From an uncultured Candidatus Binatia bacterium (lineage in GTDB: Bacteria; Desulfobacterota; Binatia; UBA9968; JAJDTQ01): 64,000 nucleotides of DNA. A model generated the notes under the pieces. It was not told the origin of the DNA. It saw only the letters and a program-made list of their open reading frames with translations, and searched no databases. Both the position numbers and the translations under genes were made by a program. Location of the stretch: the NCBI GenBank assembly GCA_964291295.2, contig OZ219754.1:2903319-2967318 (forward strand), read 5' to 3'. This document shows positions 1-64,000 of this stretch, in pieces; positions within the stretch are counted from its first letter, which is position 1; every line of letters begins with the position of its first letter.

Positions 1-493
1 TGAAGTCCCGCTCCGGGTCGACGCCCGCCGCCCCGAGGAAGTGCCGGGGCATGAGGTGTCCGGAGGTGGAGCTCACGCTGCCGAAGGCAAAGGTCCTGCC
101 CTTGAGATCCTCCAGGGTCCGGATGCCGGAATCGGTACGCGCCACGAACACGCTCCTGAAGCTTGCGTCTTCTTCACGCATGACCAGCCGAGTGGCTCCC
201 TTGGCCCGCTGGGTGGCCTGAACCGAGGTGAAGCCGCCGTACCAGACAATGTCCAGCCGGCCGGCCGCCAGCCCCTCTACCGTGGCCGCATAGTCCACCA
301 CCGGGATGAACGTGACCTTGGTGCCCACCTCCCTGGCGATGTAGTCGGTAAAGGGCCTGTACTTGCGCAACAACTCCTGCGGATCCTCGTCGGGGATGGC
401 GGACAGCCTCAACGTGTCCGCGGCGGCGACACCCCAGGCCACGAACACGGCCGACACCAGCCACCCCAGTCTCCAGGCGAACTTCCTGTGCAT
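1..493 (-). CDS. Phosphonate/phosphite-type ABC transporter substrate-binding protein (PhnD family); 5' part only, runs off the left edge
   Basis: Not in the ORF track because there is no stop inside the window. Reverse-strand reading from ATG 493..491 gives MHRKFAWRLGWLVSAVFVAWGVAAADTLRLSAIPDEDPQELLRKYRPFTDYIAREVGTKVTFIPVVDYAATVEGLAAGRLDIVWYGGFTSVQA...FAFGSVSSTSGHLMPRHFL. That is a signal peptide plus a PhnD-like core. GGGAGG lies 5 nt upstream of the ATG. Confidence 0.8.
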   Translation of the reverse strand, partial: MHRKFAWRLGWLVSAVFVAWGVAAADTLRLSAIPDEDPQELLRKYRPFTDYIAREVGTKVTFIPVVDYAATVEGLAAGRLDIVWYGGFTSVQATQRAKGATRLVMREEDASFRSVFVARTDSGIRTLEDLKGRTFAFGSVSSTSGHLMPRHFLGAAGVDPERDF

Positions 494-539
494 CCATGCC
501 TCCCGAAACGAATTTCCGTTCATTGGATATCAAGGGAAA

Positions 540-1505
540 CTATATGTCAAATAGACTTGAGCTATGCGTCAGCCCCTTCCATGGACCCATCCGCGGCCCC
601 CGGCCCAGGAACTGCACGAAGGCGCGCGGCACCGGCGGCAGCGGCCGGCCCCGGTAGGTCACCTGGTAGAAGGGCCGAATCAGTTCCAGCTCCTTGATGC
701 GGAGTTCATGGATCAGGCCTTGCTGAACCTCGCGCCGAATGGCGGCACGGGAAAGGATGGAGAACCCGAACCCCTCCATCAGCGCCTCCTTCACCGCGGC
801 CGTGCTGCCGAGTTCGAGCCCCACCCGGAGAAGGCGATCCGGATCCCGGCCGCGCCTGGCCAGAACCTGCAGAAACGACCGCAAGGTGCCGGAGCCGGCC
901 TCCCTGGAGATGAACGGGTGCTTGCCGAGATCCTGGAGGGGCACATGCTGCAACCGGGCCCAGGGATGGTTCGCGGGCACCGCCACGACCAGCTCGTCCT
1001 GCCAGATCCTGCGATAGCCCAACCGGTCGTCACGGGTGCGGAAACCGGTGAAGCCCAGTTCCAGCGCGCCCTCGAGGATGGCGTCCACGATGGAGGCCGA
1101 GTCGCCGATGCGCAGCACCGGCCGGACCTCCGGGAAGCGCGCCACGAAGCTTCCCAGCACGCCCGGCAGAATGTACTCCCCCGGAACGTTGCTGCCGCCC
1201 ACCCGGAGCTCCCCTTCCACCTTCCGCTGGATGCGGTCGAGGGCCGCCAGCGCCTGGCCCTTCAGCTTGAGCACCGCGCCCGCCTGCTCGTACAGCAGCC
1301 GCCCCCCGGGCGTCAGGTCGAACCGGGCGCCCACGCGCCGGAACAGCGCGACCCCGAGTTGCCGTTCGAGGGTTCGGACATGGGCGGTCACGGTAGGCTG
1401 CCGGAGGGAGAAATGCTCCGCCGCGAGGGAAAAGCTGCGCAGTTCCGCAACCCAGTAGAAGATCTCGAGCTTGCGGAGATCCAGATCCCTTGACGCCTTG
1501 GTCAT
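540..1505 (-). CDS. LysR-family transcriptional regulator
   Basis: ORF 540..1616. The wHTH LRKLEIFYWVAELRSFSLAAEHFSLRQPTVTAHVRTLERQLG is followed by a LysR substrate-binding domain. Start trimmed to ATG 1505 (MTKASRDLDL...); ATG 1520 is also possible. Divergent from the next gene. Confidence 0.9.
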   Translation of the reverse strand: MTKASRDLDLRKLEIFYWVAELRSFSLAAEHFSLRQPTVTAHVRTLERQLGVALFRRVGARFDLTPGGRLLYEQAGAVLKLKGQALAALDRIQRKVEGELRVGGSNVPGEYILPGVLGSFVARFPEVRPVLRIGDSASIVDAILEGALELGFTGFRTRDDRLGYRRIWQDELVVAVPANHPWARLQHVPLQDLGKHPFISREAGSGTLRSFLQVLARRGRDPDRLLRVGLELGSTAAVKEALMEGFGFSILSRAAIRREVQQGLIHELRIKELELIRPFYQVTYRGRPLPPVPRAFVQFLGRGPRMGPWKGLTHSSSLFDI

Positions 1506-2854: not shown

Positions 2855-5800
2855 TCACCAGCGCAGCGCACCGCGCAGCATGAGGCCCTGCTCGCCGTTG
2901 GTCCAGGGCCGGCTTGTGCCCTCGATTCCCAGGGCGACCCCCGACCCCAAGCGGTAGCGCGCACCCAGGCGCAGCGTGCGCTCGCCCGACTCCGCCAGGC
3001 TGAGCCCGGCATAAGGCGTCAGCAGCGCCAGCGGCGCCGGGCCGGCGATGCCGATGCCGTGCCCCATCTCCGCCTCCAGGCGGCTCTCTCCCGCCCCCGC
3101 CCCGCTGTCCATGGCCGAGCCGTAGTCGAACAACCGCCCCAGACCGCTTGCCGTGCGACCGTGGGTCGGGCCGAAGCTCAGGTAGCTCCCCCGCCCGTCG
3201 GCCCCGGGGTCAAGGCGCACCAAGGCGCTCACGCCCCATTCCTCCCGGTCCCGCTCGTGCACCGCCAGCATCCGGGCCCGCAACTCCGCAGTCAGACGGG
3301 CACCCGGGTCGCGCCAGGTCACGCCGGCCCCCACCTCCACCCCGCCGCCCTGCCCAACGTCGCCGTCGTCATGACGCACGCCCACTTCCAGTGCCGGCGT
3401 CAGCGTCGCATCGCCCCCGACCCGGTGCTCCCACGACCCCTCCAGCATCAGCCGCAGTCGGCTCGCCTTCACCGTCAACTCGGTCAGACCGTCGCCGGCC
3501 TCCGTGTCCAGTTGGACCAGGGAGCCCTCCCCCTTCACCGCCACTCGCGTGGTGCCCCCGGCGATGAGCTCCGGATCCTCCAACAGCACCCCGCGCCCGC
3601 CCGCCGCCCCACTCCACTGGGACAGGTCCGCCGTGCGCGCCGCCGCTCCCGCCTCGGTGATCCGCACCTCGCCCCTCCCATAGCCCGCACTCGCCCACAG
3701 CGTCGTGCCGTCCGCACGCAGCCACGCCAGATACGGATTCACCGACACCACCCGGCTCTCGTGCCTGCTTTTCGTCCCATCACCACCCCGGGACACCGCA
3801 TCCACCTTGCCCTTCGCATACGACACCGCCGCCCCCGCCAACAGGTCCGGGCGAACCCGCACGTCCGCCCCCAGATACCCCGACCACAGCCCGCCCTCCC
3901 AGGAAAGATCCCGCTCCGAACCCGACAGCGACCGCCACTCGCCCACTCCCCACAACGCCGGCGCCGCCACCCCTCCCGCCCCCGAAGCACCCAGCGGCAG
4001 CGCGAAGGAGGCCCCGTCCAGCAACTCTCGCAAGCCCGGCCCCCCTTGCCCCCGACCTCCCGGACCAACCCACTCATCATCCACCACCATCCCCGGCGCC
4101 GCTCCAAAACGCACCGTACCACCCGCACCGCCATCCGACACCGCTTCGATCCGCCCCGTCACCGCCTCAAGCGTCTGCGACAGCGCCAGCGCCGCCACAT
4201 GCGGCAGGATCGCACGGTTCACCCGGTTCGCCGACGACGACGAACCCTCTTCCAGCACTCCTTCCGCCACCGCATCCACCCCCACCGCATAGCCCGGCGC
4301 CGCGTTCAGCGTGATGCGGTACGACTCCCTCCCTTCCGCCTCCCCATCCACCCTGGTGGGTATCATCACCAAACCCCTCCGGCTCGCCGTGGCGCCGAAC
4401 ACCGCATCCAACGAACGCGGCCCCAGCCCACCCGGAAGGTCCTCCCCATCGAAGCCGCCGCCGTCGCGCGCCGCCAGCGTCAGACTCACCACCAAACTGC
4501 CCGTCAGCACACGGTCCGAGGTCACCACAAGGCGGATGTCCTCCCCCTCGCTCACCGCCGCCGGGTCCGTCTCCAGACTCAGCACCGGCGTCGTGTCCCT
4601 CACCCGCACCACCACCGAGGCGATGCTCACCGAATCATAGCCCCCGCCCCTCGCTCCGTGCGTCAGCGTCGCCCTGTCGTCCGCCGTGTCCGCGTCACGG
4701 GCCGCGCTCACCGTCACCCCCTGCGGCTCGCTCCAGTTCGAGGCCGTGAAGGTCAGGCGCCGCGGCACTACCGTCACCTCCCCCGATGCCCCGCCCACCG
4801 TCACCGTCACCGGCCCCGTAGGCTCCGCGCCCAGCACCACCGTGTAACTACCGGAGCCGCCCTCCTCCACCGTCAGCGCCGTCGGCGTCACCCGCACGCT
4901 CCCGCCCGCCGCGGGAGGCGCAGATGGCGGCGCCGCGGCCGTCGGCGTCGCGCTCACCGGCGCATCCGGGCCAGCGCCGTTGCCGGCACCGTTCACCGCG
5001 CGCACCTCGAACTGATACGCGGTGCCGTTGGTCAGACCGCTCACCTTGTAGCTGGTGGTGCCCGCTCCGGAGCCCCCGATGTCCGTCCAATCGTCCCAGG
5101 CCCCGCTGCCGGCCTTCCGCCGGTATTGCCACTTCGTGATGGTCGGATTGCCCGCGTCCGTCCAGCTCAGCGTCACCGAACCGTCCCCCGCCGCCGCCGC
5201 CAGGCCCGTCGGCTTCGCCGGCACCACGCCGCTCTCCGTCACGCTCACCACCACCGAGGCGATGCTCACCGAATCGTAGCCGCCCCCCGAGGCGCTGTGG
5301 GTCAGCGTCACGGCGTCGTCCGTCGCCGTGTCCGTGTCCGTCCCCGCGTTCACCGTCACCGTCTGCGCCATGTTCCAGTTGACCGTGGTGAAGGTCAGCG
5401 TCGCATTCGCCACCGTTACGTCGCCCGAAGCGCCGTCCACCATTATCGTCACATCGCTCGACGGCGCCGTGTTCAGCCGCATCGTGTACGTGTTGGAGCC
5501 ACCCTCCGCCACCGTCAGCGCCGCCGTCGACACCGTCACCCCCGGCGCAGCGGCCACCGTCACGCCCACCGTGCCGGCATCGGGAATCGCATCCGCCGCG
5601 GCGCCCGTCAGCCGGAAGGCGTGGTTGATCGTCGCCGTGCCCGCCTCCACGCCGGTCACCGTCACCGTCTGTCCCGTGCTGTAGTTGCTCGCCGAGAAGG
5701 TCAGGGTCGCCGGGTCCACCGTCGCCTTGGCCGTGGCGGAGCTCGTGATCGACAGCGTCCCCGCATACTCCTTCGTCAACGCCACCGTGTAGCTGACGGA

Positions 5801-8641
5801 GGAGCCGGCCACCACCGTCACCGGCGCCCCGGTGAACGTGAGCGCGTCCAGGGCGTCGTTCTTGAAGGTGACCGTGCGTATGTTCGACCAAGGGCCATAC
5901 ACACGGTTGCCGCCCGAGTTGGTGGCCGTCGCCCGAATCCGAACCTCTACCGATGCGCCGTCCGGATAGGTGTTGCCCGGGTTGGCTCTGCTGTTGCGTC
6001 TGCTGGGACTGGAGGCGCCGCTCGGGCTTCCGCCCTCTGCCCAGTTGCTGGACCCCTTTAGCCGGTGACCTATTCGCCACGCATAGAACGTGACCGCGTT
6101 TGCGACTTGGTCGCCGAGACTCGTACTGGTATGGGTCCAGGTCACATCGATCCGCCCACTCGTCGTCGAGGTGGCGGCCGTCAGCACCGGGGCCACCGGC
6201 GCCGCCGGCGTCGCCGTCACCTCGTCCGACGCCGCACCGTTGCCGTTGCCGTTCACCGCGCGGATCCTGAACGTGTAGATCGTGCTGTTCGTCAGGCCCG
6301 TGATCCGGTGCTGCACCGTCGTCGCGCCGGAACCCGCGATCCGTGTCCATGAACCGTAGCTCCCGTTCCCCGCCTTCTGCCGGTACTCCCAACGGGTAAT
6401 GCTGGCGTCGTTCGGGTTGGTCCATGACAGCACAACCTGCGTGTCGCCCTTCGTCGCGCCAAAGCCCGCCGGCTTGGCGGGCGCCGCGCCGGCAGGAGGC
6501 TCCGCCGGCGTCCCGCTCACCACCGCCGACGCGACGCTGTTGCCGGCGTCGCTCTTCGCCCGGATGCGGAAGCGGTATTGGCTGTCGTTATCCAGCCCCG
6601 TCACCGTGTGGTTCGTGGTGTCCGCGTCCGAACCGGAAATGTCGGTCCAGCTGCCCCAGGCGGCGCTGCCCTTCCTCTGCTGCACCTGATACCCCGAGAT
6701 CGAATCGTCGTCCGGATCGGTCCACGACAGCGTCACCTGCGCGTTGCCCGCCGTCGCCGACAGGCCCGTCGGTGCGGCGGGTTGGGCGGCCTCATCGTCG
6801 TCGGTGATGGTCAGCGTGAGCTTGCCGCTGGTCCAGCCGTCCTCGTAGCCGATGAGGTTTACCGTCTCGTCCGGTTCGTCCCGGGTATCGCCGAGGATGC
6901 GAACGGTCATCGTGCCCTGGGTCTGGCCTTCGGCGATGGAAACAATGACGCCGTTCGGGAAGCACATATCCGTGTCTACCGGGAGCAGGGGCGGATCGCA
7001 GGGGTCACGCCCCTTGCCGGAGCCCGCGGCGGTGCCGGGGTCCACGTCGTAACCCGACGTAAGCGAGAAGTTCGCGGGCGCCGGCTCGCTGAGGGTGAAG
7101 GTGATGGTGACGTCCGTCGAACCGGAGTCGCCCTCGGTGATCGTGGCCGACGGGGACGCCGACAGCGTGATCGTCTTCGGGCCGGAGTCCCTGACCGCCA
7201 CGGTGATCGTGGTGGAGGTCGTGGCGGCCACGGCAGTGCCGTCGCGGCCCTTCCAGCTCCAGGTGACGGTGTGCGTGCCCACGCCCAGCGTTGCGCAGGG
7301 AAACAGGCCGACGCCGAGGCCGGTCGCAATGCCGGCAGGAGCCTGCGTGATCTCGACGCGGTTATTCCCCTGGAGGTTCGCAAGCCGGTTAATGTACGAG
7401 TTTCCCCCGGTGCGTTGTTGTAGCCAGACGAGATTATCATTTCCCCTGACCTGCTTGACCGACAGCAGGTTGAAGCACACATCCGTCGTCGCATCGGCCG
7501 ACCCGACCGTGACGGTTTTGTCCGGATCGGAGGTCAGCGTCGGGGTCGCCGCCCTGGGCGTGGCCTCGATCCAGCCCTGGTTGTTGAAGACGCTCGAGGC
7601 GATCTCGGTCCGCCCGCCCGGACCCACCAGCCGAACCCGGAAGACGCCAGTCTCGCCGTTGGTTGCGCTGTAGCCGTATTCTCTGAGGGCGACGCCGCCG
7701 GGTAAATCAAGCCACCGGCCCTCTCCATTTCGGTCCGAGAGCCGGATCCACTCGAGCTGCCAGCTCACCGCGCCGTCAGTCGGGCCGTCGTACACCCACT
7801 CGAAACCGAACCATTCATCGTTTCCGGCCACCGTGAGGGCGACAGTGCTGACGAAGACGGTGACCTGGTTGGATTCCGTCCCCGCCGCGCCATCGCTTCT
7901 GGCCGTTCTTACCTGAAAGGTGTAGCTGCCGGGGCTCAAGCCCGTGATCGTGTGGGTGTTGGTGGCCCCCGTGCTGCCCGGAATCCGGCTGTAATTGCCT
8001 GTGGCCTGCGAACCCGCCGTGTAGCGGACATCCCACTGGTTCACGACGGCGGGCAGATTGGCCCCTGTCCAGGAAAGGGTGACGCCGTTGCCTATCCGCG
8101 CGACGGTGAGGGTGACGGAGGGCACGGGCGTCGGCGTTGCCGACGCCTCGTTGGACGGGTTGGCGTAATTTGTTATGGTACGCCTAACGCCAGTGAGATA
8201 TGCCCCGGTGACCTGAAAGGTGTAGGCGACGCCGGCGGTCAGACCACCAATGGTGTGTCTGCGGATGCCCTCCCCGCCGGGGATATTCTGCCAACCGCCG
8301 TACTCGCCCGCGCCTTCCTTCTGCCGGTATCGCCACTGCGTGGTGAAGCCAAGGGAGCTCATGGTCCAGGATAACGTCACCTGCCCGGGTCCAGGCGCGG
8401 CTGTGAGCGCCGGCGTCTGATCCTGCGCCCGCGCGATCTGCGGTGCGAGGGCGGCGGCACCCAGCACAATGAGAAAGAGGGTAAGAAACCCCGCCCTCAG
8501 GCGGCGGGCAGCTCTTCCGGACGCACTCACTGGATCAGCCCCGCGCCCGGAGAGAGTGTGTGTGTTGGGGGGGGGGGGGGGCGCACGAGACGCGAGCGCC
8601 TCGCGCGGACAGCCGCGGCAGGCCACGCGCCGCAGGATCAT
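2855..8641 (-). CDS. Giant surface protein: type Va autotransporter with FN3 / Calx-beta repeat passenger
   Basis: 1,928-codon ORF with signal peptide RRLRAGFLTLFLIVLGAAALAPQIARA/QD. It has at least six FN3-like modules (GQVTLSWT..., AQVTLSWTDPDD...YRFRIRAKSDAGNS, TQVVLSWTNPND...YTFRIRAVNGNGNG, GSVTLSWTDAGN...YQFEVRAVNGAGNG). Calx-beta-like modules are present (TITEGDSG...TLTITDDDEA; AVSEGEDIRLVV). Two copies of a module end TLTH.A.GGGYDSVSIASVVV. The C-terminal ~450 aa resemble an autotransporter beta-barrel ending GLMLRGALRW. Start is ambiguous: ATG 8641 or GTG 8530. Confidence 0.85.
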   Translation of the reverse strand: MILRRVACRGCPREALASRAPPPPPNTHTLSGRGADPVSASGRAARRLRAGFLTLFLIVLGAAALAPQIARAQDQTPALTAAPGPGQVTLSWTMSSLGFTTQWRYRQKEGAGEYGGWQNIPGGEGIRRHTIGGLTAGVAYTFQVTGAYLTGVRRTITNYANPSNEASATPTPVPSVTLTVARIGNGVTLSWTGANLPAVVNQWDVRYTAGSQATGNYSRIPGSTGATNTHTITGLSPGSYTFQVRTARSDGAAGTESNQVTVFVSTVALTVAGNDEWFGFEWVYDGPTDGAVSWQLEWIRLSDRNGEGRWLDLPGGVALREYGYSATNGETGVFRVRLVGPGGRTEIASSVFNNQGWIEATPRAATPTLTSDPDKTVTVGSADATTDVCFNLLSVKQVRGNDNLVWLQQRTGGNSYINRLANLQGNNRVEITQAPAGIATGLGVGLFPCATLGVGTHTVTWSWKGRDGTAVAATTSTTITVAVRDSGPKTITLSASPSATITEGDSGSTDVTITFTLSEPAPANFSLTSGYDVDPGTAAGSGKGRDPCDPPLLPVDTDMCFPNGVIVSIAEGQTQGTMTVRILGDTRDEPDETVNLIGYEDGWTSGKLTLTITDDDEAAQPAAPTGLSATAGNAQVTLSWTDPDDDSISGYQVQQRKGSAAWGSWTDISGSDADTTNHTVTGLDNDSQYRFRIRAKSDAGNSVASAVVSGTPAEPPAGAAPAKPAGFGATKGDTQVVLSWTNPNDASITRWEYRQKAGNGSYGSWTRIAGSGATTVQHRITGLTNSTIYTFRIRAVNGNGNGAASDEVTATPAAPVAPVLTAATSTTSGRIDVTWTHTSTSLGDQVANAVTFYAWRIGHRLKGSSNWAEGGSPSGASSPSRRNSRANPGNTYPDGASVEVRIRATATNSGGNRVYGPWSNIRTVTFKNDALDALTFTGAPVTVVAGSSVSYTVALTKEYAGTLSITSSATAKATVDPATLTFSASNYSTGQTVTVTGVEAGTATINHAFRLTGAAADAIPDAGTVGVTVAAAPGVTVSTAALTVAEGGSNTYTMRLNTAPSSDVTIMVDGASGDVTVANATLTFTTVNWNMAQTVTVNAGTDTDTATDDAVTLTHSASGGGYDSVSIASVVVSVTESGVVPAKPTGLAAAAGDGSVTLSWTDAGNPTITKWQYRRKAGSGAWDDWTDIGGSGAGTTSYKVSGLTNGTAYQFEVRAVNGAGNGAGPDAPVSATPTAAAPPSAPPAAGGSVRVTPTALTVEEGGSGSYTVVLGAEPTGPVTVTVGGASGEVTVVPRRLTFTASNWSEPQGVTVSAARDADTADDRATLTHGARGGGYDSVSIASVVVRVRDTTPVLSLETDPAAVSEGEDIRLVVTSDRVLTGSLVVSLTLAARDGGGFDGEDLPGGLGPRSLDAVFGATASRRGLVMIPTRVDGEAEGRESYRITLNAAPGYAVGVDAVAEGVLEEGSSSSANRVNRAILPHVAALALSQTLEAVTGRIEAVSDGGAGGTVRFGAAPGMVVDDEWVGPGGRGQGGPGLRELLDGASFALPLGASGAGGVAAPALWGVGEWRSLSGSERDLSWEGGLWSGYLGADVRVRPDLLAGAAVSYAKGKVDAVSRGGDGTKSRHESRVVSVNPYLAWLRADGTTLWASAGYGRGEVRITEAGAAARTADLSQWSGAAGGRGVLLEDPELIAGGTTRVAVKGEGSLVQLDTEAGDGLTELTVKASRLRLMLEGSWEHRVGGDATLTPALEVGVRHDDGDVGQGGGVEVGAGVTWRDPGARLTAELRARMLAVHERDREEWGVSALVRLDPGADGRGSYLSFGPTHGRTASGLGRLFDYGSAMDSGAGAGESRLEAEMGHGIGIAGPAPLALLTPYAGLSLAESGERTLRLGARYRLGSGVALGIEGTSRPWTNGEQGLMLRGALRW
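4607..4636. repeat. Intragenic repeat copy 1 (30 bp identical core of a duplicated ~105-codon module)
   Basis: caccaccaccgaggcgatgctcaccgaatc occurs identically at 4607..4636 and 5246..5275 (period 639 bp = 213 codons). The flanks are diverged copies of the same protein module. Confidence 0.9.
5246..5275. repeat. Intragenic repeat copy 2
   Basis: Identical 30-mer to 4607..4636 inside the autotransporter gene. Confidence 0.9.
8532..8552. repeat. 21-bp direct repeat, copy A (ggatcagccccgcgcccggag)
   Basis: Exact 21-mer also at 8709..8729. On the minus strand both copies are followed by N-GTG. Copy A abuts the GTG 8530 candidate start of the autotransporter. Confidence 0.9.
8551..8581. repeat. 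Hypermutable-type simple sequence: (AG)3 (GT)5 followed by G15 homopolymer (8567..8581)
   Basis: Direct reading of lines 8521-8581: agagag tgtgtgtgtt then 15 consecutive G. On the coding strand this is C15, read as PPPPP if translation starts at ATG 8641. Confidence 0.95.
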
Positions 8642-8823: not shown

Positions 8824-9282
8824 CTAGAGCTTGTCCAATTCGGCCAGCAGCTCCGAGTTGTCCGGGATACCGCCCTCGTAAATCCTGGAGTAGCGCACGC
8901 TCCCCTGCTTGTCGATGATGAAGACGGCCCTCTTGGGAAATCCCTGGGGGCGCAGGCAGTCGTACTGCTCGCAGACCGCCCCATGGGGAAAGAAGTCCGA
9001 CAGCATCGGAAAGGTGATGCCGCCCATCTGCTCCGCGAACACCTTGTGTGCAAACACCGAATCCACACTCACGCTCAGAACCTGAGCGTCTTTGGCTTCG
9101 AAGCTGGCCTTGTCAGCCTCGAAGTTGCTCAATTCCTGCTTTCAGCCGCCGGTGAAGTCCAGCGGATAGAACGCCAACACGACGTTCTTCCTGCCCGCAT
9201 AATCGCTCAGGGACACCTTTTCGTCCCGGGACACCGGCAGGCTGAAGTCCGGGGCCTTTTCTCCCACTTCTGGCATTGCCAT
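8824..9282 (-). CDS. Peroxiredoxin (AhpE-like 1-Cys type) with in-frame TGA at the peroxidatic Cys position; putative selenocysteine protein
   Basis: ATG 9282 has AGGAG 8 nt upstream. The frame reads [49 protein letters not shown](9144..9142)[56 protein letters not shown]...ELDKL. It is a single frame of 152 codons with no other interruption. The ORF track shows only the part after the TGA (8824..9132). Confidence 0.75.
9096..9124 (-). promoter_or_regulatory. SECIS-like mRNA hairpin downstream of the in-frame UGA
   Basis: On the mRNA, 17 nt after the UGA: CUUCGAGGCU-GACAAGGCC-AGCUUCGAAG. This is a 10-bp stem (one G-U) with a 9-nt loop starting with G and containing GG. The loop G is 28 nt after the UGA. 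Confidence 0.55.
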
Positions 9283-9337
9283 CAAACGATCTCCTTTCCA
9301 GGTTTCAGATTTTCCAACGCGTCACGGGGTACAGTGC

Positions 9338-32243: not shown

Positions 32244-33611
32244 TCAGCCCGTCAGACGGCTCATGAGCCGACGCGCCCTTTCCACCGCGCCCGGCTCGAT
32301 GGAAAGGGTCGCGGCGAAATCGCCCAGGGGCCGGGTGGCGTCGATGCCCATCTTCGCCGTAACGGCATCGGTGGCCGAGGGGTCCAGCAGCGTGCCCATG
32401 GCCTCGTCAACGATGAAAACGTCGCGGTCGGCCTGCATCCGGGTGGCCATGGCCCACAGCACCTGCTCTTCGTCGAATACATCGATGTCCGCGTCCACCA
32501 CCACCACCAGCTTGACGTAGTGGTCCGCCCCCAGCACGCTGAAGATGGCCTGCTTGGCCTGTCCTTCCGCGGTCTTTCTCAGGGAGACATAACAGTGGAA
32601 GCTGCCGATGCCCGACCGCACCGGCACGTGCACCGCCTTGAGATTGGGAATGGTCTTCCCCAGCACGTGGGTGAACTCCACTTCCCGGGGCATGGACAGG
32701 CAACGGCAGTGCTCCAGGCTGTCGCCGCCGTTGATATCCTGGTAGACGGCCCCGTTGCGGTAGTGCAACGCCGTGGCCTCGAACACGTTCTCGGTGCTCC
32801 GGCTCGAGGCGTAGCCGGTGAACTCGCCGAACGGCCCCTCCTTCTCCCGCACGTCCTTGAGGATCCGCCCCTCGATGACGACCTCCGACCACCGCGGCAC
32901 GTCGACGTCCACGGTGGCACAGCGCGTCAACTCCAACGGTTCTCCCAGAAGCCCGCCCTGAAGCGCGAACTTCTCCGTTCCCGCCGGCGGCAGCGTCAAT
33001 GCCCCCAGTGAGACCAGCGGGTGCACACCGATGCAGACCGCGGCCTCCAGGGACTCCCCCTTCTCCTCGGCGCGCCGGAAGTACTCGAACATGCGCCGCC
33101 GGGAATGGAGGCTGACCCCCAGCTTGCGCGGCCCCTTGAGCTGCATTCGATGGAACCCCACCGTACGCATGCCGGACTGTGGATCCCGCGCCACCACCAG
33201 CCCGGCGGTCACATAGGGGCCGCCGTCCTGCTCGAAATGGGTCAGCACCGGGAGTCGTCCCAAGTCCACCGATTCACCCAGCAGGGTGTTTTCCTGGAAC
33301 GGGGCGTCTTTCAACACCGCGGGCCGCATGGGCTGCTGGATCCGCTCCCTGAACTCGTTCACCAGCCCTTCCTCCGGCGTGCCGAAGATCCAGGCCAGTC
33401 GCGGGCGGTGCGCCAGCACGTTGGCCGCCACGGTGAAGTCACTCCCGGTGATGTTCCGGAATATCACCACCGGACAGGACGGCAGCCGTTCAGCCTCCAT
33501 CACCAGAGCAGTGGCCTCGAACTCCCGGGACACCGGCTCCCCGACTTCGAGCCACTGCTCCGGACACGCTTCCTTCAATCGCTTCAGGAAACCCTGCAGA
33601 TCCTGTGGCAC
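32244..33611 (-). CDS. UbiD-family (prFMN-dependent) decarboxylase/carboxylase, paralogue 1
   Basis: 455 aa. UbiD N-terminus (FLKRLKEACPEQWLEVGEPVS) and core motif EGPFGEFTGYASS. Confidence 0.85.
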   Translation of the reverse strand: MPQDLQGFLKRLKEACPEQWLEVGEPVSREFEATALVMEAERLPSCPVVIFRNITGSDFTVAANVLAHRPRLAWIFGTPEEGLVNEFRERIQQPMRPAVLKDAPFQENTLLGESVDLGRLPVLTHFEQDGGPYVTAGLVVARDPQSGMRTVGFHRMQLKGPRKLGVSLHSRRRMFEYFRRAEEKGESLEAAVCIGVHPLVSLGALTLPPAGTEKFALQGGLLGEPLELTRCATVDVDVPRWSEVVIEGRILKDVREKEGPFGEFTGYASSRSTENVFEATALHYRNGAVYQDINGGDSLEHCRCLSMPREVEFTHVLGKTIPNLKAVHVPVRSGIGSFHCYVSLRKTAEGQAKQAIFSVLGADHYVKLVVVVDADIDVFDEEQVLWAMATRMQADRDVFIVDEAMGTLLDPSATDAVTAKMGIDATRPLGDFAATLSIEPGAVERARRLMSRLTG

Positions 33612-37569: not shown

Positions 37570-38640
37570 TCAGTCGTCATCGAACTCGCCCCGGGCCCTG
37601 GCCTCCTGGATGGCGAAGAAGACCCGCTCCGGGGTGATGGGCGTCTCGGTGATGCGGATGCCGATGGCGTCGTCGATGGCGTTCAGAATGGCCGGGGTGG
37701 TGGGGATCGTGGCGGGCTCGGCGACCCCCTTGGCGCCGAACGGCCCCCGGGGGTCCGGCACCTCCACGATCTCGCACTCGATGTCCGGCACGTCCATGGC
37801 GGTGGGTACCAGATAGAACGCCAGCGACGACGTGCGCGGCACGCCGTTCTCCAGGATATGCTGCTCGTAGAGACCGTAGCCCAGGCCCATGGCGGCGCCG
37901 CCCTCGATCTGTCCTTCCACCGCCGCCGGGTTGATGGCCTTGCCCGCGTCCGTGGCCGAAACCAGCCTGACCAGACGCACGCGCCCGGTCTCGGTATCCA
38001 CCTCCACCTCCGCCAACTGGGTTGCCCAGCCGTAGGTGGCGTAAGCGTCGCCCTGGGAAGTCTCCGGATCCACGTCGGCGGTGGTGTTGTCGTGCCAGCC
38101 CCAGGCCGCCGACCGCCGGCCGTGGAAATGGAGCTGCTGGGCCACCTTGCCCACCGACACCATGGGGCGGTCGCTGCCGACCTCGCACACCTCGCCGCGG
38201 CTCACGTGAAGGTTCTCCCTGGGACACTCCAGCATGCGCGAGGCCATGTCCAGGAGCTGCGCGCGCAGTTCCCCGGCCGCCCGCTGTACCGCCACCCCCT
38301 GCACGAAGGTGGCGCGGCTGCCCGAGGTGGGCCCGGCGTCCGGCGTGCTGCCGGTATCCGCCGCCACCACGCGAATCTGCTCCGGCTCGATGCCAAGCTC
38401 CTCCGCCGCCACCTGGGTCACCACGGTCATGACCCCCTGGCCCATGTCACAGGCCCCGGAGTAGATGGTGGTGGTGCCGTCCTCGGCCATCTCGATCTCG
38501 GCCGAGCCGATGTCGGCCCGGCTGAAGCCGTAGCCGATACCGTAATACATGGAGCCGATGCCCAGGCCTCTTCTTGTCGCCATGATCGCCCGGCCGCGCC
38601 CTTCAGGAGGCGGCCCGAGCCCGCCTGAACCGCAGGTCAT
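37570..38640 (-). CDS. Xanthine-dehydrogenase-family Mo-hydroxylase, C-terminal molybdopterin-binding piece (NdhM-like)
   Basis: RRGLGIGSMYYGIGYG...CDMGQGVMTVVTQVAAEELG...DTGSTPDAGPTSGSRATF...PFGAKGVAEPATIP (catalytic Glu context). ATG 38640 overlaps the upstream piece by 38 nt in another frame. ATG 38583 (MATRRGLG) is an alternative start. Confidence 0.75.
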   Translation of the reverse strand: MTCGSGGLGPPPEGRGRAIMATRRGLGIGSMYYGIGYGFSRADIGSAEIEMAEDGTTTIYSGACDMGQGVMTVVTQVAAEELGIEPEQIRVVAADTGSTPDAGPTSGSRATFVQGVAVQRAAGELRAQLLDMASRMLECPRENLHVSRGEVCEVGSDRPMVSVGKVAQQLHFHGRRSAAWGWHDNTTADVDPETSQGDAYATYGWATQLAEVEVDTETGRVRLVRLVSATDAGKAINPAAVEGQIEGGAAMGLGYGLYEQHILENGVPRTSSLAFYLVPTAMDVPDIECEIVEVPDPRGPFGAKGVAEPATIPTTPAILNAIDDAIGIRITETPITPERVFFAIQEARARGEFDDD

Positions 38641-39916
38641 GTGCGTCCATGTAGTCCTCGATGCGCCGCAGCGTCGCTTCGATGCCGCAGCCTTCGTTCA
38701 TCAACTGTCCGGTGGAGGAAGCCAGCCCCGGCCTGAGGCAGTTCTTCAAGCGGAACTCCAGCGGCGACATGCCCAGCCGGTGGGCCAGCTGGTCCATCTG
38801 GGACTCGTGGGCCACGGCCGCCTGCATCACCCCGAAGCCGCGCATGGCCCCGGAGACCAGATTGTTGGTGTAGAGCGTATAGGTGTCCACCCGGATGTTC
38901 GGCACTTCGTAGGGACCGGTGGCGTGGATGCCCGCCTTCTTGACCACGTAGGCGCCCAGCGAAACCCCCGCGCCCGTGTCGCCGTAGATGTCGCCGTCCA
39001 GGAAGGCCAGCCGGCCGTCGGCGCGGGCGCCGGTGCGGAAGTTCATGGCCATGGGGTGGCGCTTGGTGTTGGCGACGAGGGACTCCTCGCGGCTGTAGAC
39101 CAGGCGCACCGGCCGGTGCGTCCTGAGCGCCAGCAGGCCGGCGTGGATCTCCACGGTGATGTCGTCCTTGCGGCCGAAGCCGCCGCCGATGGGTGCCTGG
39201 ATCACCCGGACCCTGTTCATGGCAAGGCCCAGGGCCGGCGCGATCTGGCGGCGGTCCCGGTACGGGTACTGGGTGCCCGCCAGGATGTGCAGCACGCCGG
39301 AGGGATCCACATGGGCCAGTCCCGCCTCCGGCTCCATGGGAACGTGATCCATGCGATGGGTGTGGTAGGTGTTCTCCACGACCACGTCCGCCTCCCGCAT
39401 GCCCCGCTCCAGATCACCCTTGCGCACGGTGGTGTGCTGGAACACGTTGCCGCCCTCGTGGATCGAAGGCGCCGTCCGGTCCAGGGCATCCGCGTAGGTG
39501 AGAATCGGCCGCAGCGGCTCCAGGTCCACCTTGATCTTCGCCAGCGCCTCCTCGGCCGCTTCTTCGTCCTCCGCCGCCACCAGGGCCAGGGCATCGCCCG
39601 CCGACCGCACCTTGTCGTCCGCCAGCACCTGCTGGTCGAGCACGGCCAGTCCGTAGCGGTTGGTGCCGGGCACGTCCGCGGCCGTGAGCACGGCGGCCAC
39701 ACCGGGCGTCCGGGCGGCCTCCCTGGTGTCGATGTGGCGGATCACCGCGTGGGGCGTACCCGCCCACAGGATCCGGGCGTGGAGCATGCCCGGCACCACC
39801 ATGTCGCCCACGTACTCGGTGGCGCCCAACGCCTTCTCCAGCGCGTCGGGCCTGGTGACGTTCCTGCCGATCCAGTGATGCGGGCGGTCCGCCGCCCCGG
39901 AAGTCCCCTGGCTCAT
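38603..39916 (-). CDS. Xanthine-dehydrogenase-family Mo-hydroxylase, N-terminal molybdopterin-binding piece (NdhL-like)
   Basis: ORF 38603..40504 trimmed to ATG 39916 (ATGA overlap with the 2Fe-2S gene). GATEYVGDM, VENTYHTHRMDHVPMEPEA, APIGGGFGRKDD. 437 aa, ending where unsplit homologues continue. Confidence 0.8.
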   Translation of the reverse strand: MSQGTSGAADRPHHWIGRNVTRPDALEKALGATEYVGDMVVPGMLHARILWAGTPHAVIRHIDTREAARTPGVAAVLTAADVPGTNRYGLAVLDQQVLADDKVRSAGDALALVAAEDEEAAEEALAKIKVDLEPLRPILTYADALDRTAPSIHEGGNVFQHTTVRKGDLERGMREADVVVENTYHTHRMDHVPMEPEAGLAHVDPSGVLHILAGTQYPYRDRRQIAPALGLAMNRVRVIQAPIGGGFGRKDDITVEIHAGLLALRTHRPVRLVYSREESLVANTKRHPMAMNFRTGARADGRLAFLDGDIYGDTGAGVSLGAYVVKKAGIHATGPYEVPNIRVDTYTLYTNNLVSGAMRGFGVMQAAVAHESQMDQLAHRLGMSPLEFRLKNCLRPGLASSTGQLMNEGCGIEATLRRIEDYMDAHDLRFRRARAAS

Positions 39917-40392
39917 CTCCCCTCGCTCGTGATCTCTTCGGCGGCCGCGCGCACGGCCTTGACGATCTTGCCGTATCCCGTGCAACGGCATAGGTTCCCG
40001 GAGATGGCGAAACGGATCTCGTCGTCCGTGGGGTCGGGGTTGTCGCGCAGCAGCGCCCAGGCGCTCATGATCATCCCCGGCGTGCAGTAACCGCACTGTA
40101 TGCCGCCCTGCGCCACCATCTGCCGCTGCAAGGGATGGGGCCGGCCCTCTTCGGCCAAGGCTTCGATGGTCACCACCTCCCGGTCCACCGCGTCGGGAAA
40201 CAGCACCAGGCAGGACACCACCGGCCGGCCGTCGAGGAGAACCGTGCACGACCCGCACTCGGCCTCGTTGCAGCCCTTCTTGCTGCCGGTCAGACGAAGG
40301 TTGTCGCGCAGTACGTCCAGCAGGGACTGATGGGGTTCGGCTTCGGTTTCCCGGACGCCGCCGTTCACCCGCAGACGGTAGCGCCGCTTCAT
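39913..40392 (-). CDS. Mo-hydroxylase small subunit, 2x[2Fe-2S]
   Basis: GCNEAECGSCTVLLDG and QCGYCTPGMIMS...GNLCRCTGY cysteine motifs. 159 aa. Confidence 0.9.
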   Translation of the reverse strand: MKRRYRLRVNGGVRETEAEPHQSLLDVLRDNLRLTGSKKGCNEAECGSCTVLLDGRPVVSCLVLFPDAVDREVVTIEALAEEGRPHPLQRQMVAQGGIQCGYCTPGMIMSAWALLRDNPDPTDDEIRFAISGNLCRCTGYGKIVKAVRAAAEEITSEGR

Positions 40393-41282
40393 GCCGTCGC
40401 CGCCCGCCCGTCCGCCCGGGCCCTTTCCACCGCCTGTCGCAGCACGCGCCGCACCAGTATCCGCGCCAGCTCCCTGCGGTAGGCCGCCGACCCGCGAATG
40501 TCATCGATGGGGCAACACGCTTCCATCGCCGCGGTCCCGGCCCACTCCAGGCGTTCCGGGCTCGGCTCCCTGTCCAGCACCAGCTCCTCCGCCTTCAGAG
40601 CCCGAATGGGCGTGGGCGCCACCGCGCCCAGGGCGATGCGCACCGCCCTCACCCTTTCCCGGGCCGAATCCAGCGTCACGGAGGCGGCGGCGCTGGCTAT
40701 GGCGATGTCCATGGCCGACCGCGGCGTGAACCGCTCGAAGGCATCGCCGGTGAACGGTTCCGGTTCCGGCACCTCCACCGCCAGGAGCAACCCGCCGGCA
40801 CCCAGCACCGACGCCCCCGGACCTTGAAAAAAGTTCTCCACCGATACGGTCTCCCGTCGGGATTCATGGCCCCACAGGGTTATCGTGGCCCCCAGCGCCA
40901 TGAGCGGCGGCGCCGTATCCGCCGACGGCGAAGCATTGCACAGGTTGCCGCCGACGCTGGCCATGTTCCTCAACTGCGGCGAACCCACCACCCGGAGCGC
41001 CTCGCGGATCGAGGGAAAGCGCCGGCCCACGGCCGCGGACGTTTCCAGATCCCGCATGGGCGTGCAGGCCCTCACCTGGAGCCCCTTGCCGGGCGCGCAT
41101 TCCCAGCCCGAAAGCCCCGGTATCCGTTTCAGATTCACCAGCCCCTCGGCGCGGACCACCCGACGGCGCAACTGTATGACGATATCCGTACCGCCGGCAA
41201 GCGCCCGGCGCGCGCCTTTTCCCTCCCGCAACAACTCGCTCGCTTCCCGCAGGGAGGTGGGCTCGAAATAGTCAAAGCGCAT
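40389..41282 (-). CDS. Mo-hydroxylase medium subunit, FAD-binding (CoxM/XdhB-like)
   Basis: MRFDYFEPTSLREASELL...LAGGTDIVIQLR...NMASVGGNLCNASPSADT...DDIRGSAAYRRELARILVRR. No Cys-rich [4Fe-4S] insertion. Confidence 0.9.
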   Translation of the reverse strand: MRFDYFEPTSLREASELLREGKGARRALAGGTDIVIQLRRRVVRAEGLVNLKRIPGLSGWECAPGKGLQVRACTPMRDLETSAAVGRRFPSIREALRVVGSPQLRNMASVGGNLCNASPSADTAPPLMALGATITLWGHESRRETVSVENFFQGPGASVLGAGGLLLAVEVPEPEPFTGDAFERFTPRSAMDIAIASAAASVTLDSARERVRAVRIALGAVAPTPIRALKAEELVLDREPSPERLEWAGTAAMEACCPIDDIRGSAAYRRELARILVRRVLRQAVERARADGRAATA

Positions 41283-47921: not shown

Positions 47922-49361
47922 TCAACCCGCGCCGTTGCCGTTGAACAGTACCTTGCCCCACTTCCTGGCCGTGGCGTCGAGCACCTCCGGACTGGACTCC
48001 GCCACCGGCGGGAACTCGCTCATCCACTCGTAGGGACGGCACGCGTCGATGATGGCGCGGGAGTTGAAGCCCTTCTTCGTGGGGTGCACGATGGGGTCGA
48101 GGGGGCCGCTCCAGGCGCGCCGGATGATGTCGATGTCGCCATCCGGATCAGAGCGCGTCGCCAGGGCCCAGATCACGTCATCGGTGTTGGAGGGGTCAAT
48201 GTCGTCGTCCACGACAATGACGTAGCGGCCGAGGTAGGCGCCCGCGTGGCACTGGGAAGCCACCACCGCGGCCTGGCGCGCGTGTCCCGGGTAGCGCTGC
48301 TTGATGGAGACCACCATGACCAGACGGCTGCCGCCAGCCACCATCAGCCAGACACCCCTGACATCGGGAACGCCGGCTTTCTCCATCTCGTCCCAGATGA
48401 GCGCCGAACGCAGGTACGACCGGTACCAGCCGAGCTCGGCCGGCGGCCTTCCCGGAGGCGAGCCGAGGATGATGGGGTCGTTCCGATGGTACAGGCGCTT
48501 GATCTTCACGATGGGCTCGTTCCGCTCCGCGCTGGCATAGTAGCCGGTCCACTCGCCGAACGGGCCCTCGACACGATCCTCGCCGAAGATCACGTCGCCC
48601 TCCACCACGATCTCGGCATTGGCCGGAACCATCAACCCGGAGTACGGCGCCTTGACCACCTCCAGGGGCTCTCCGCGAATACCCCCCAGGAAGTCGTACT
48701 CGGGCACGCCGTAGGGCACCTCGATGCTTCCGCCCAGGAAGACCAGCGGGTCATGCCCGAAGGACATGGCCATCTTGAAGGACTCGCCGGTCTGCTGGTA
48801 CTTGTCCCGGTGGATCCGGCCGTGCTTGCCCGGAGAGATGTAGAAGCCCACGGTGTCGGAATCGTGGACCATGACCCGATACGTGCCCCAGTTGGTCCAG
48901 CCTTCGTCCCGGTCCGCGGTGATGTCGATGCTGCCGGTGCCGATGTAGCGGCCGCCGTCCCGCTCGTGCCAGCGGGGCGTGGGGAACTTGAGCAGATCAA
49001 TGTCGCCCTCTTCGAAAACGTTCTCGAACAGCGGGCCGTCCTTCAGCACCTTGGCGGGGACAGGCTTGATCTTCCTGTAATGCTCGCGCCACGTGTTGAC
49101 GAACTCCATCTTGCTGTCGCCCGGGGGCAGGTTCAGAGTCAAGCCGATACGCTTCCGCGAACTCAGCGAGTTGGACAGGACGCGGTAGCCCTTGGGGTGG
49201 TCCTTGATCTCGTCGAACAGCACCGCGGGGCCGTCTTCCCTGCGCATCACCATCTCGGTAATGGCGCCGATCTCAAGATCCCAGTCGCAGCCCCTCAGGG
49301 TCTTGAGCTCCCCCATCGCATTCGCCTTGTCGATCCACTCGCGGCAATCATTGAATTCCAT
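47922..49361 (-). CDS. UbiD-family decarboxylase/carboxylase, paralogue 2
   Basis: ORF 47922..49457 trimmed to ATG 49361 (GGAGG SD). MEFNDCREWIDKANAMGELKTLRG..., core VEGPFGEWTGYYASAE. Confidence 0.85.
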   Translation of the reverse strand: MEFNDCREWIDKANAMGELKTLRGCDWDLEIGAITEMVMRREDGPAVLFDEIKDHPKGYRVLSNSLSSRKRIGLTLNLPPGDSKMEFVNTWREHYRKIKPVPAKVLKDGPLFENVFEEGDIDLLKFPTPRWHERDGGRYIGTGSIDITADRDEGWTNWGTYRVMVHDSDTVGFYISPGKHGRIHRDKYQQTGESFKMAMSFGHDPLVFLGGSIEVPYGVPEYDFLGGIRGEPLEVVKAPYSGLMVPANAEIVVEGDVIFGEDRVEGPFGEWTGYYASAERNEPIVKIKRLYHRNDPIILGSPPGRPPAELGWYRSYLRSALIWDEMEKAGVPDVRGVWLMVAGGSRLVMVVSIKQRYPGHARQAAVVASQCHAGAYLGRYVIVVDDDIDPSNTDDVIWALATRSDPDGDIDIIRRAWSGPLDPIVHPTKKGFNSRAIIDACRPYEWMSEFPPVAESSPEVLDATARKWGKVLFNGNGAG

Positions 49362-49410
49362 CGTTACCTCCGCTCGGTATGCATTCCATCTGCCGTGCTT
49401 TCGGGACGTG

Positions 49411-49800
49411 TCAGGTCTTCTGGTACATGCCTCGCCCCATGCGCCTGATCCGGCCATCCTTGGACCACCGTACCACTACCTGCCGGAGATAGGCCCTGGG
49501 CTTCTCGCTCGCCGTCTTGTTGGCGCCCACGGTGTCGAGAGTGAACTCCTTCGGCAAGGTGTCGAAAATCGCGTTCCAGTCGATCATGGCGCCGCGAGGC
49601 CCCCGTCTCTGCACCTGTCCGGAGCGGGCGGGCCGGCCGCGCCGGCGGCGCGGTTCTCGACCTCCATCCAGCATGTCGTAGATGATCTCATGCCGCTTGA
49701 TATCGTCCCGGAGCGTGGCCACCCGCGCGGTGGCCGCCGCCAGTTCCTTCTTCAACAGATCGATCTGCTGCCTGACACTTACCTTCAGAGCCAAGGCCAT
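49411..49800 (-). CDS. Hypothetical small DNA-binding-type protein (coiled coil + Arg-rich/AT-hook-like + wHTH-like C-terminus)
   Basis: AAGGAGGAAAG SD directly before ATG 49800. VRQQIDLLKKELAAATARVATLRDDIKRHE, RRRRGRPARS, C-terminal YLRQVVVRWSKDGRIRRMGRGMYQK. No family recognised. Confidence 0.6.
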   Translation of the reverse strand: MALALKVSVRQQIDLLKKELAAATARVATLRDDIKRHEIIYDMLDGGREPRRRRGRPARSGQVQRRGPRGAMIDWNAIFDTLPKEFTLDTVGANKTASEKPRAYLRQVVVRWSKDGRIRRMGRGMYQKT

Positions 49801-63065: not shown

Positions 63066-64000
63066 CTACGACCAGTAGGTCGTCCGATCAATGGGGATGT
63101 GCGAAAGGATCTCGCCGGGAATGAAATCCTCGACCTTGATCCGGCTCATGGCCTCGTCCGGAACCTTGGACACCGGCGAGAACGGCCGGTCCAGCGGACG
63201 CGTGGCGTCGACGATCATCCCTGAGGTCTTGATCTCGTCCACCAGGGACGGATCCAGGAAGTTGCCGCGGAAGAGCGGTTTCAGGATCGACACCTGGCGG
63301 TGGGGCTGCACGCGCGTGGCCAGGGCCCACAGGATGTCCGTGGGATCGTACACGTTGATGTCCTCGTCGAAGACGAAGACGTTCTTGGTGTGGTCGAAGG
63401 TCAGGGCCGCGGCCGCCGCCCGTCCCGGATCGCCTTCCGACAGCTTGTTCATGGAGATGAAGACGTTGTAGTGGGCATGCCGGCCCATCTTGCAGACCGC
63501 TCGCACCCCGGGCACGGCCTCGCGGCAGCGGCGCAGATAGGCGCCCTCGCGCGGCAGATCCATCCACGGCTTGTCGCCCTCGGGCGTGATGATGGACTGG
63601 AACATGGCACCCCGGCGCCAGCTCATGGCGGTAACCTTGTACTCCACGCAGGTGGTGTAGCGCTGCGGCCCGAGATAGCCCGGGGCCTCGCCGAAGGGAC
63701 CTTCCACCACCCGCTTGTTGGGTTGAAGCAGTCCCTCGATGACCACCTCCGCGTCCGCCGGGATCAGGAAGTTGTCGCCCCAGGTGGAGGACGGCGTGAG
63801 CCGCAGCGGCTCCTGCATGTAACCGCCGATGATGTCGAACTCGCTCACCTCGAACGGGCCGCTGTAGCACGCGCCCATGTGGTAGGTCGGGTGGTGCCCC
63901 AGCACCGTGGCCACGGGACACTCCATGTTGTTGTCCTCGTAGTCCTTGAATATCTTCCACAGGTGGCGCGGCGAGGCGTACAGCGCCGTGCTCCGGGGCG
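63066..64000 (-). CDS. UbiD-family decarboxylase/carboxylase, paralogue 3 (3' part; 5' end beyond the right edge)
   Basis: The frame stays open upstream of the track's ATG 63926 (...ALYASPRHLWKIFKDYEDNNMECPVATVLGHHP). Core VEGPFGEAPGYLG. C-terminal DATRPLDRPF. Confidence 0.85.
   Translation of the reverse strand, partial: PRSTALYASPRHLWKIFKDYEDNNMECPVATVLGHHPTYHMGACYSGPFEVSEFDIIGGYMQEPLRLTPSSTWGDNFLIPADAEVVIEGLLQPNKRVVEGPFGEAPGYLGPQRYTTCVEYKVTAMSWRRGAMFQSIITPEGDKPWMDLPREGAYLRRCREAVPGVRAVCKMGRHAHYNVFISMNKLSEGDPGRAAAAALTFDHTKNVFVFDEDINVYDPTDILWALATRVQPHRQVSILKPLFRGNFLDPSLVDEIKTSGMIVDATRPLDRPFSPVSKVPDEAMSRIKVEDFIPGEILSHIPIDRTTYWS

Follow-up and report, generated by a model that had tools for sequence, protein, structure and literature searches.

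The DNA analysed here, referred to as the window, is a stretch of 64,000 nucleotides on contig OZ219754.1 of an uncultured Candidatus Binatia bacterium (assembly GCA_964291295.2). Its minus strand contains, at positions 8824..9282, a complete coding sequence for an AhpE-like peroxiredoxin (Prx) with an in-frame TGA codon in the column of the peroxidatic Cys, and two hairpin-forming elements lie downstream of this codon inside the coding region. The coding sequence consists of 152 codons, from the ATG at 9282..9280 to the TAG at 8826..8824. A Shine-Dalgarno-like AAGGAG (9291..9296, minus strand), as read from the sequence, is separated from the ATG by an 8-nt spacer. Translation of the frame encounters one internal stop, the TGA at 9144..9142 (codon 47), which we infer to encode selenocysteine (Sec) and which would complete the motif PxxxTxxU. 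A preliminary description of this DNA had proposed such a selenoprotein gene, and its start, frame, single TGA and open reading frame (ORF) fragment all match the sequence; further stops or frameshifts, which it had denied, are absent from the window gene, and 72 orthologous sequences have no extra stops.

Annotation splits the gene. The ORF listing of the window contains an N-terminal piece of 47 amino acids (9142..9285) and a TTG-started piece of 102 amino acids (8824..9132). NCBI and ENA entries for close relatives are fragments of 83-105 amino acids with differing annotated start positions, and about 70 of the best 120 matches of the protein search fall into this size class, comprise the C-terminal part only and share 72-88% identity. 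On three ENA contigs a 46-amino-acid AhpC fragment abuts a fragment of 102/103 amino acids, and the gene order TrpS-ScpA-ScpB-pseudouridine synthase-NUDIX-Prx is common to these contigs and the window. Four JGI relatives listed as full-length (P0001-P0004, 155 amino acids, "mycoredoxin-dependent peroxiredoxin", 70-74% identity) carry Trp at the catalytic site. Re-translation of positions 301..768 of one JGI contig (L163) gives a stop where Trp had been called; the Trp residues in the database stem from the use of an alternative code for contigs of about 1 kb. The NCBI/ENA fragments and the JGI Trp calls confirm the proposal that ORF calling misses the gene. An abundant and conserved antioxidant enzyme of Binatia is consequently misannotated in essentially all public records, with either half of the active site missing or Trp at the catalytic position.

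When the internal stop is read as Cys, residues 6-131 of the protein match positions 1-123/124 of the Pfam profile AhpC-TSA (PF00578) with an E-value of 7e-38 and a score of 129.7 bits, against a cut-off of 26. The closest solved structures are those of Mycobacterium tuberculosis AhpE, which accounts for all of the top seven PDB matches (E 1e-28 to 9e-30), and the first match to another protein is a 2-Cys Prx (E 4e-23). Identity between the window protein and AhpE amounts to 42% over 139 residues. The TGA column aligns with the peroxidatic Cys45 of AhpE (FTGIC), and the nearest Cys-type homologue (P0017, 54% identity) likewise possesses Cys in this column. Both alignments agree with the placement of the TGA in the preliminary description, and the AhpE motif given there, FFPLAFTGICQGEL, proves to be right, its Cys being the residue aligned with the TGA.

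The catalytic residues are distributed over both sides of the TGA. Pro40 and Thr44 belong to codons 40-44 (P-L-D-F-T, 9151..9165, minus strand), upstream of the TGA and in the fragment dropped by annotation, and the conserved catalytic Arg is encoded by codon 118 (PKRAVF, 8929..8931, minus strand), aligned with the Arg of "ANRGTF" in AhpE. P40, T44, the TGA of codon 47 and R118 are invariant in 71 distinct orthologues. A review of 2026 (PMC13188914) lists PxxxTxxU as the motif of Sec-peroxiredoxins, and the window enzyme is a new member of this known selenoprotein family (PMC1794560, PMC13188914). Two extra cysteines, C104 and C109, are located in codons 104-109 (C-E-Q-Y-D-C, 8956..8973, minus strand); each is present in 92% of the 71 orthologues, and AhpE has S and V in these columns. 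They may act as resolving residues for a selenenic acid / selenenylsulfide intermediate. One subclade (L066, L068-L072) lacks C109, and a part of it also lacks C104.

A scan of one genome per species detected the orthologue in about 70 species-level genomes, several of them closed chromosomes. Complete Binatia chromosomes with the gene include OY762897.2, OX638375.1, OY761465.1, OY282432.1 and OZ243984.1. Nearly all are labelled Candidatus Binatia or belong to older metagenome-assembled genomes (MAGs) under the names "Deltaproteobacteria" or "Syntrophobacterales". Five Binatia-type orthologues (L036, L047, L052, L070 and L072) occur in MAGs that bear the labels Eisenbacteria, Acidiferrales, Udaeobacter, Verrucomicrobiia or Proteobacteria, which could be due to wrong binning, wrong labels or horizontal transfer. 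All 75 close relatives (67-89% identity, 63 distinct DNA sequences) have TGA as the catalytic codon, and none has TAA, TAG, TGC or TGT; actinobacterial homologues at about 50% identity have TGC. Among 72 orthologues, the pairwise ratio of nonsynonymous to synonymous differences (pN/pS) is 0.22 before the TGA (codons 1-46) and 0.20 after it (codons 48-152). This is thus an intact gene under selection, with TGA fixed in its peroxidatic column.

Hairpin 1 (9096..9124, minus strand) begins 18 nt past the UGA, with its loop 27-28 nt past this codon. In the window it consists of an 11-bp stem (9124..9114 with 9106..9096) and the 7-nt loop ACAAGGC (9113..9107), with a free energy of -16.0 kcal/mol. 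The 11 bp are a feature of the window's clade; conservation across Binatia is limited to the 7 bp at the base (9124..9118 with 9102..9096). Hairpin 2 (9071..9089, minus strand), the candidate SelB-binding selenocysteine insertion sequence (SECIS), is located 6 nt beyond hairpin 1, its loop starting 60 nt after the UGA. Two 8-nt strands (9089..9082 and 9078..9071) form its 8-bp stem around the triloop GUU (9081..9079), with free energies of -10.8 to -12 kcal/mol.

Both helices were recovered independently by RNAalifold from a gapless alignment of 64 distinct sequences, hairpin 1 as its 7-bp core. For the two hairpins together, pairing holds in 90% of the alignment cells and drops to 23-41% once the 3' partners are shifted, and two-sided changes number 51, against 12.3 in shuffled alignments. 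Pair 28/54 of hairpin 1 illustrates the covariation: it is CG in 25 sequences, UA in 20 and UG in 18, and broken in one. Across the clades that possess it, hairpin 2 has 98.6% of its cells paired and an apex that never changes. Four of its eight pairs show two-sided changes, which affect 41 cells (14.5 +/- 4.9 in shuffles, with 0 of 500 shuffles reaching the observed number).

Since the RNA of both hairpins is coding, codon usage was checked as well and tallied over the 71 distinct orthologues. Synonymous sites vary freely elsewhere in the gene and are frozen in the stem codons. Those of hairpin 1 are codons 52-54 and 60-61, where Phe54 uses one of two possible codons, and Ser52 and Ser60 two of six each. 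In the stem of hairpin 2, Ala66 is GCT and Ser70 is AGC in 71 of 71 orthologues, and Leu69 uses two of six codons; Val68, the loop codon, is free. Three Cys homologues with a near-identical peptide (VQVL.VSVDS) form neither helix: they retain 4-6 of the 8 pairs of hairpin 2 and 3 of the 7 pairs of hairpin 1, and their hairpin 2 region reaches -3.7 to -5.7 kcal/mol, compared with -12 kcal/mol. The two selected RNA helices occur with TGA-bearing genes only.

The published model of bacterial SECIS (bSECIS) elements (PMC13188914 Fig. 2; also PMC10778597) comprises a loop of 3-9 nt, a stem of 4-16 bp, a minimum free energy of -7.5 kcal/mol or lower, a distance of 16-37 nt between UGA and loop, and a G within the first two loop positions (the loose rule), typically as N1-G-[G|U]-N-N2 (the G[G|U] rule). 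Some bSECIS elements fall outside this consensus and may form distinct classes (PMC13188914). Hairpin 1 of the window agrees with the model in loop size, stem, energy and spacing (7 nt, 11 bp, -16.0 kcal/mol and 28 nt), but its loop ACAAGGC is without the required G; an alternative register with a 9-nt loop, GACAAGGCC, 27 nt from the UGA, passes the loose rule only. Hairpin 2 lies within the loop, stem, apex and energy constraints of PMC13188914. Its apex CAG-GUN-CUG fits N1-G-[G|U]-N-N2, as a GUN triloop closed by G-C is equivalent to G-G-U-N-C.

The same two-hairpin layout is found outside Binatia. A homologue from a Clostridia MAG (L078, 47% identity) possesses the TGA, both hairpins and the same apex on a different hairpin 2 stem. 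A metagenome scan seeded with this sequence yielded 80 relatives, classified by local alignment into 41 with TGA and 39 with Cys codons (TGC/TGT). Hairpins were detected with a scanner for contiguous stems of -7.5 kcal/mol or lower, and with a second version without the energy cut, which is noisier for Cys genes; the proximal SECIS of the FYVLAF group, AU-rich and bulged, escaped the energy-cut scanner at -6.7 kcal/mol.

The 116 TGA genes compared fall into two layouts, one with a canonical proximal SECIS and one with a spacer and a distal hairpin. The proximal layout comprises 25 genes of the FYVLAFTGG* and FFPAAFTGG* groups, with a triloop GGC, GUC or GGA whose loop is located exactly 23 nt after the UGA and with no stable distal hairpin. 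These groups make up a large sister group of the same Prx family (metagenome loci L113-L139 and L131-L153; FYVLAFTGG*TKELKAYQ, FFPAAFTGG*), with the textbook proximal SECIS GCGUAUCA-GGC-UGAUAUCGC. The distal layout comprises about 88 genes (Binatia-type, L078, the WTPV*/FTPV* group and the FYIFAF group) with a loop at 59-60 nt, a median of -10.8 kcal/mol and no canonical G[GU]-loop hairpin. Both hairpin types together were encountered in five cases only, in the scan without energy cut, and there the second hairpin is weak (-5.5 kcal/mol or worse).

Genes with Cys rarely possess either feature. A G[GU]-loop hairpin at 16-70 nt is present in only 2 of 42 Cys genes when the cut of -7.5 kcal/mol is applied. 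Between UGA and hairpin 2, the RNA of all distal-type clades folds into a closed helix whose sequence is particular to the clade (median -16.4 kcal/mol, z -3.0), compared with -7.4 kcal/mol and z 0.04 for this stretch in Cys genes. Hairpin 2 is not formed either in TGA genes with a proximal SECIS that encode the same peptide, TQVLGISVDS. In one Cys-encoding relative, the metagenome locus L151, a SECIS-like element of the distal kind (AUACCGA-GGUCA-UCGGUAU, -7.7 kcal/mol) is kept in register, some 59 nt past the catalytic TGC. PMC1794560 describes conversions from Sec to Cys, and the element may be a relic of such an event.

The gene is very probably a genuine selenoprotein gene. If it is, hairpin 2 is the likely binding site of SelB, and the combination of both statements, estimated as the product of the two, is still favoured on balance. 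We infer Sec decoding at codon 47, SelB binding by hairpin 2 and a spacer role of hairpin 1 from the pattern of conservation described above. In the proposed mechanism, SelB carrying Sec-tRNA(Sec) would be recruited at the UGA by the mRNA structure inside the coding region, and Sec would be inserted instead of termination. Hairpin 2, with its invariant G-GUN-C apex, would be the element bound by SelB. Hairpin 1, closed on itself, would serve as a folded spacer, by which hairpin 2 would come to lie 31 nt from the UGA, as opposed to 60 nt along the chain. In the enzyme, the selenolate would attack peroxides, aided by Pro40, Thr44 and Arg118, according to the scheme of peroxiredoxins.

A wider generalization is more tentative. 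The distal elements might represent a distinct, conserved class of bacterial SECIS, in which a SelB hairpin some 60 nt from the UGA is brought back to working distance by a closed spacer hairpin, although we regard this as somewhat less than an even chance. The same reserve applies to the proposal that this class would be spread over at least four divergent clades of one Prx family (Binatia, the Clostridia MAG and two metagenome groups) and would alternate with proximal SECIS elements in sister clades. The spacer-plus-distal layout is put forward as a candidate new variant and as a concrete, well-supported candidate for one of the possible distinct classes of PMC13188914.

The strongest alternative accepts a genuine Sec-peroxiredoxin and assigns the SECIS function to hairpin 1, in which case hairpin 2 would serve ribosome pausing, mRNA stability or local folding. 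Its position speaks for hairpin 1, as it starts at 18 nt and its loop, at 27-28 nt, falls within the 16-37 nt of the model. In addition, the 7-bp base covaries, the loose rule is passed in 27 of 78 distinct distal-type sequences, that of the window included, through a 9-nt loop starting with G, and in the Arg-Lys clades the tip, as read from the alignment, can form a GNRA-like tetraloop closed by C-G with G in first place. However, the apex differs from clade to clade: ACAAGGC, GAUCGAAAG, GCAA on a 2-bp ministem, and loops of 13-15 nt in the FYIFAF group, a variability that is hard to square with recognition by one SelB. In the remaining 51 of the 78 sequences nothing at 16-37 nt passes even the loose rule, and the G[G|U] rule is failed by every distal-type sequence. 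A SECIS in hairpin 1 also leaves unexplained the invariant, consensus-type apex of hairpin 2 and the lack of hairpin 2 both in Cys genes that encode the same peptide and in TGA genes with a proximal SECIS. We consider this alternative unlikely. The hairpin that the preliminary description had noted "at SECIS distance" is accordingly real, conserved and canonically spaced, but its apex varies and most clades fail the loose bSECIS rule.

A reading of the UGA as a standard amino acid is far less probable. The residue would be Trp or Gly if an alternative genetic code were used, or Cys or Trp if near-cognate suppression were stimulated by the hairpins, in either case without involvement of the Sec machinery. 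JGI translated the codon as Trp in the four relatives mentioned above, and genes of the Sec machinery are not seen within the 64 kb of the window. The Trp calls, however, derive from contigs of about 1 kb, for which the genetic code cannot be chosen reliably. Ordinary ORFs of the window end in TGA more often than in any other stop (36 of 59), and neighbouring genes with complete Pfam domains terminate at it. An enzyme with Trp or Gly as its peroxidatic residue would be inactive, which is at odds with the strong purifying selection on the complete catalytic set, and the apex downstream of the UGA conforms to the SelB-type consensus. A pseudogene, a sequencing error for TGC/TGT or two small genes (a 46-amino-acid peptide and a TTG-started redoxin of 102 amino acids), as the fragments in the ORF listing and the public annotations might suggest, are effectively refuted by the identical TGA in 75 of 75 independent assemblies including closed long-read chromosomes, by the frame free of other stops and frameshifts with a pN/pS of about 0.2 in both halves, by the division of Pro40/Thr44 and Arg118 between the two fragments, and by the varying fragment starts chosen by annotators (83-105 amino acids). 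Constancy of the TGA, equal pN/pS and use of TGA as an ordinary stop therefore make error, pseudogene, two genes and code reassignment all very unlikely.

Several observations weigh against a selenoprotein gene with hairpin 2 as its SelB site. Hairpin 2 lies outside the spacing of 16-37 nt, and its loop is found at 59-60 nt in all 87 distal-type sequences. The SECIS of Escherichia coli sits directly downstream of the UGA. With the intervening helices discounted, the spacing falls to 31 nt in the window and to a median of 19.5 nt, with 64 of 78 sequences at 16-37 nt, but this calculation of an effective spacing is crude, and 14 of the 78 sequences come to 10-15 nt. Hairpin 1 could itself be bound by SelB, because the window's clade passes the loose rule in the alternative register. 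The shuffle controls overstate the significance of the covariation, because the sequences are phylogenetically related. A scan of the whole window against Rfam at gathering thresholds returned nothing. Pfam annotation of about 46 genes of the window revealed no selA, selB or selD, and ARAGORN detected no tRNA-Sec, nor any tRNA at all, in the window. A second selenoprotein candidate is likewise lacking, as a window-wide scan for SelB-type hairpins behind an open in-frame TGA returned the Prx locus only. With neither Sec machinery nor a second selenoprotein in the window, Sec decoding in this organism, as proposed in the preliminary description, is predicted from comparative evidence within the Prx gene family.

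A permissive Rfam scan of positions 8950..9300 produced a chance microRNA match (E 0.6) and no bacterial SECIS family. In the titles and abstracts searched, no report was found that links Binatia/Binatota, or enzymes of the AhpE type, to selenocysteine, which is absence of evidence only.

The Sec-peroxiredoxin family ("Prx, PF00578, TxxU") is known, e.g., from Geobacter metallireducens, Syntrophobacter, Syntrophus and Anaeromyxobacter (PMC13188914 table, PMC1794560 tables 1 and 3), and the preliminary description likewise treats it as established. The window gene shares with published members the AhpC/TSA fold, PxxxTxxU, the existence of homologues with Cys in the Sec column, and a recoding structure that lies past the UGA within the ORF. 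It differs from them, as far as a comparison by description goes, in the Binatia lineage, the AhpE-like length of 152 amino acids and the SECIS-type apex at 60 nt behind a spacer hairpin. Two curated NCBI models, PrxU of Eubacterium acidaminophilum (NF040737) and Prx-SUH (NF045827), also describe peroxiredoxins with Sec in the active site. The window protein remains below the cut-offs of both (PrxU, 83.9 against 270 bits; Prx-SUH, 38.5 against 298 bits). The window protein is thus AhpE-like and not of the PrxU type of E. acidaminophilum, the example cited in the preliminary description. Because neither model fits, the Prokaryotic Genome Annotation Pipeline (PGAP) leaves fragments named "redoxin domain-containing protein".

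AhpE is an actinobacterial 1-Cys enzyme with Cys at the active site, reduced by mycoredoxin-1/mycothiol. The window protein resembles it (Rv2238c; PDB 1XXU, 1XVW, 4X0X, 5ID2) in length class, in the F-T-G-x-C/U context, in the catalytic Arg and in the PHGAV motif; it differs in the putative Sec and in the two extra conserved cysteines C104 and C109. Hairpin 2, for its part, is similar to the SECIS of E. coli fdhF in its small loop, its 8-bp stem, its G-G-U apex (CAG-GUN-CUG, compared with GCA-GGUC-UGC in fdhF) and its adequate stability. The fdhF apex sequence GCA-GGUC-UGC is present in 5,419 of 5,426 E. coli genomes. The two elements differ in position, as in fdhF the distance from UGA to loop is 18 nt, whereas the loop of hairpin 2 follows at 60 nt with a closed hairpin in between.

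A genuine Sec gene implies that Binatia, a widespread uncultured lineage of soils and sediments, decode selenocysteine, which would bear on their redox physiology and trace-element needs. If the distal element is indeed the SelB site, the 16-37 nt rule of selenoprotein finders would not be a physical limit, and genes of this kind would be missed or assigned a wrong SECIS; this is of relevance to prediction software in which the spacing is hard-coded. The geometry of SelB and ribosome would then tolerate a branched mRNA. One family with two SECIS layouts would furthermore constitute a natural experiment on the distance from the UGA at which SelB can be tethered.

Among the other features of the window, an ORF of 1,928 amino acids (2855..8641, minus strand) lies between the Prx gene and a GCV_T/LysR pair. 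It has four matches to fibronectin type III and otherwise no Pfam match. In two related contigs (L002, L003) GCV_T directly follows Prx, so this giant gene seems to have been inserted in the lineage of the window. A molybdopterin-binding large subunit of the CoxL/xanthine-dehydrogenase type is divided into two ORFs, 37570..38640 and 38603..40504 (both minus strand), with matches to MoCoBD_1 plus hammerhead and to MoCoBD_2. The two ORFs overlap by 38 nt in different frames and adjoin an FAD-binding subunit (40389..41282). The division could reflect a frameshift, by assembly error or programmed, or a naturally split subunit. Three paralogues of the UbiD decarboxylase family are present within 32 kb (32244..33611, 47922..49457 and 63066..63926, all minus strand), accompanied by an arylmalonate-decarboxylase-like gene, a luciferase-like monooxygenase and a CoA-transferase, and this region may be an aromatic-acid catabolic neighbourhood.

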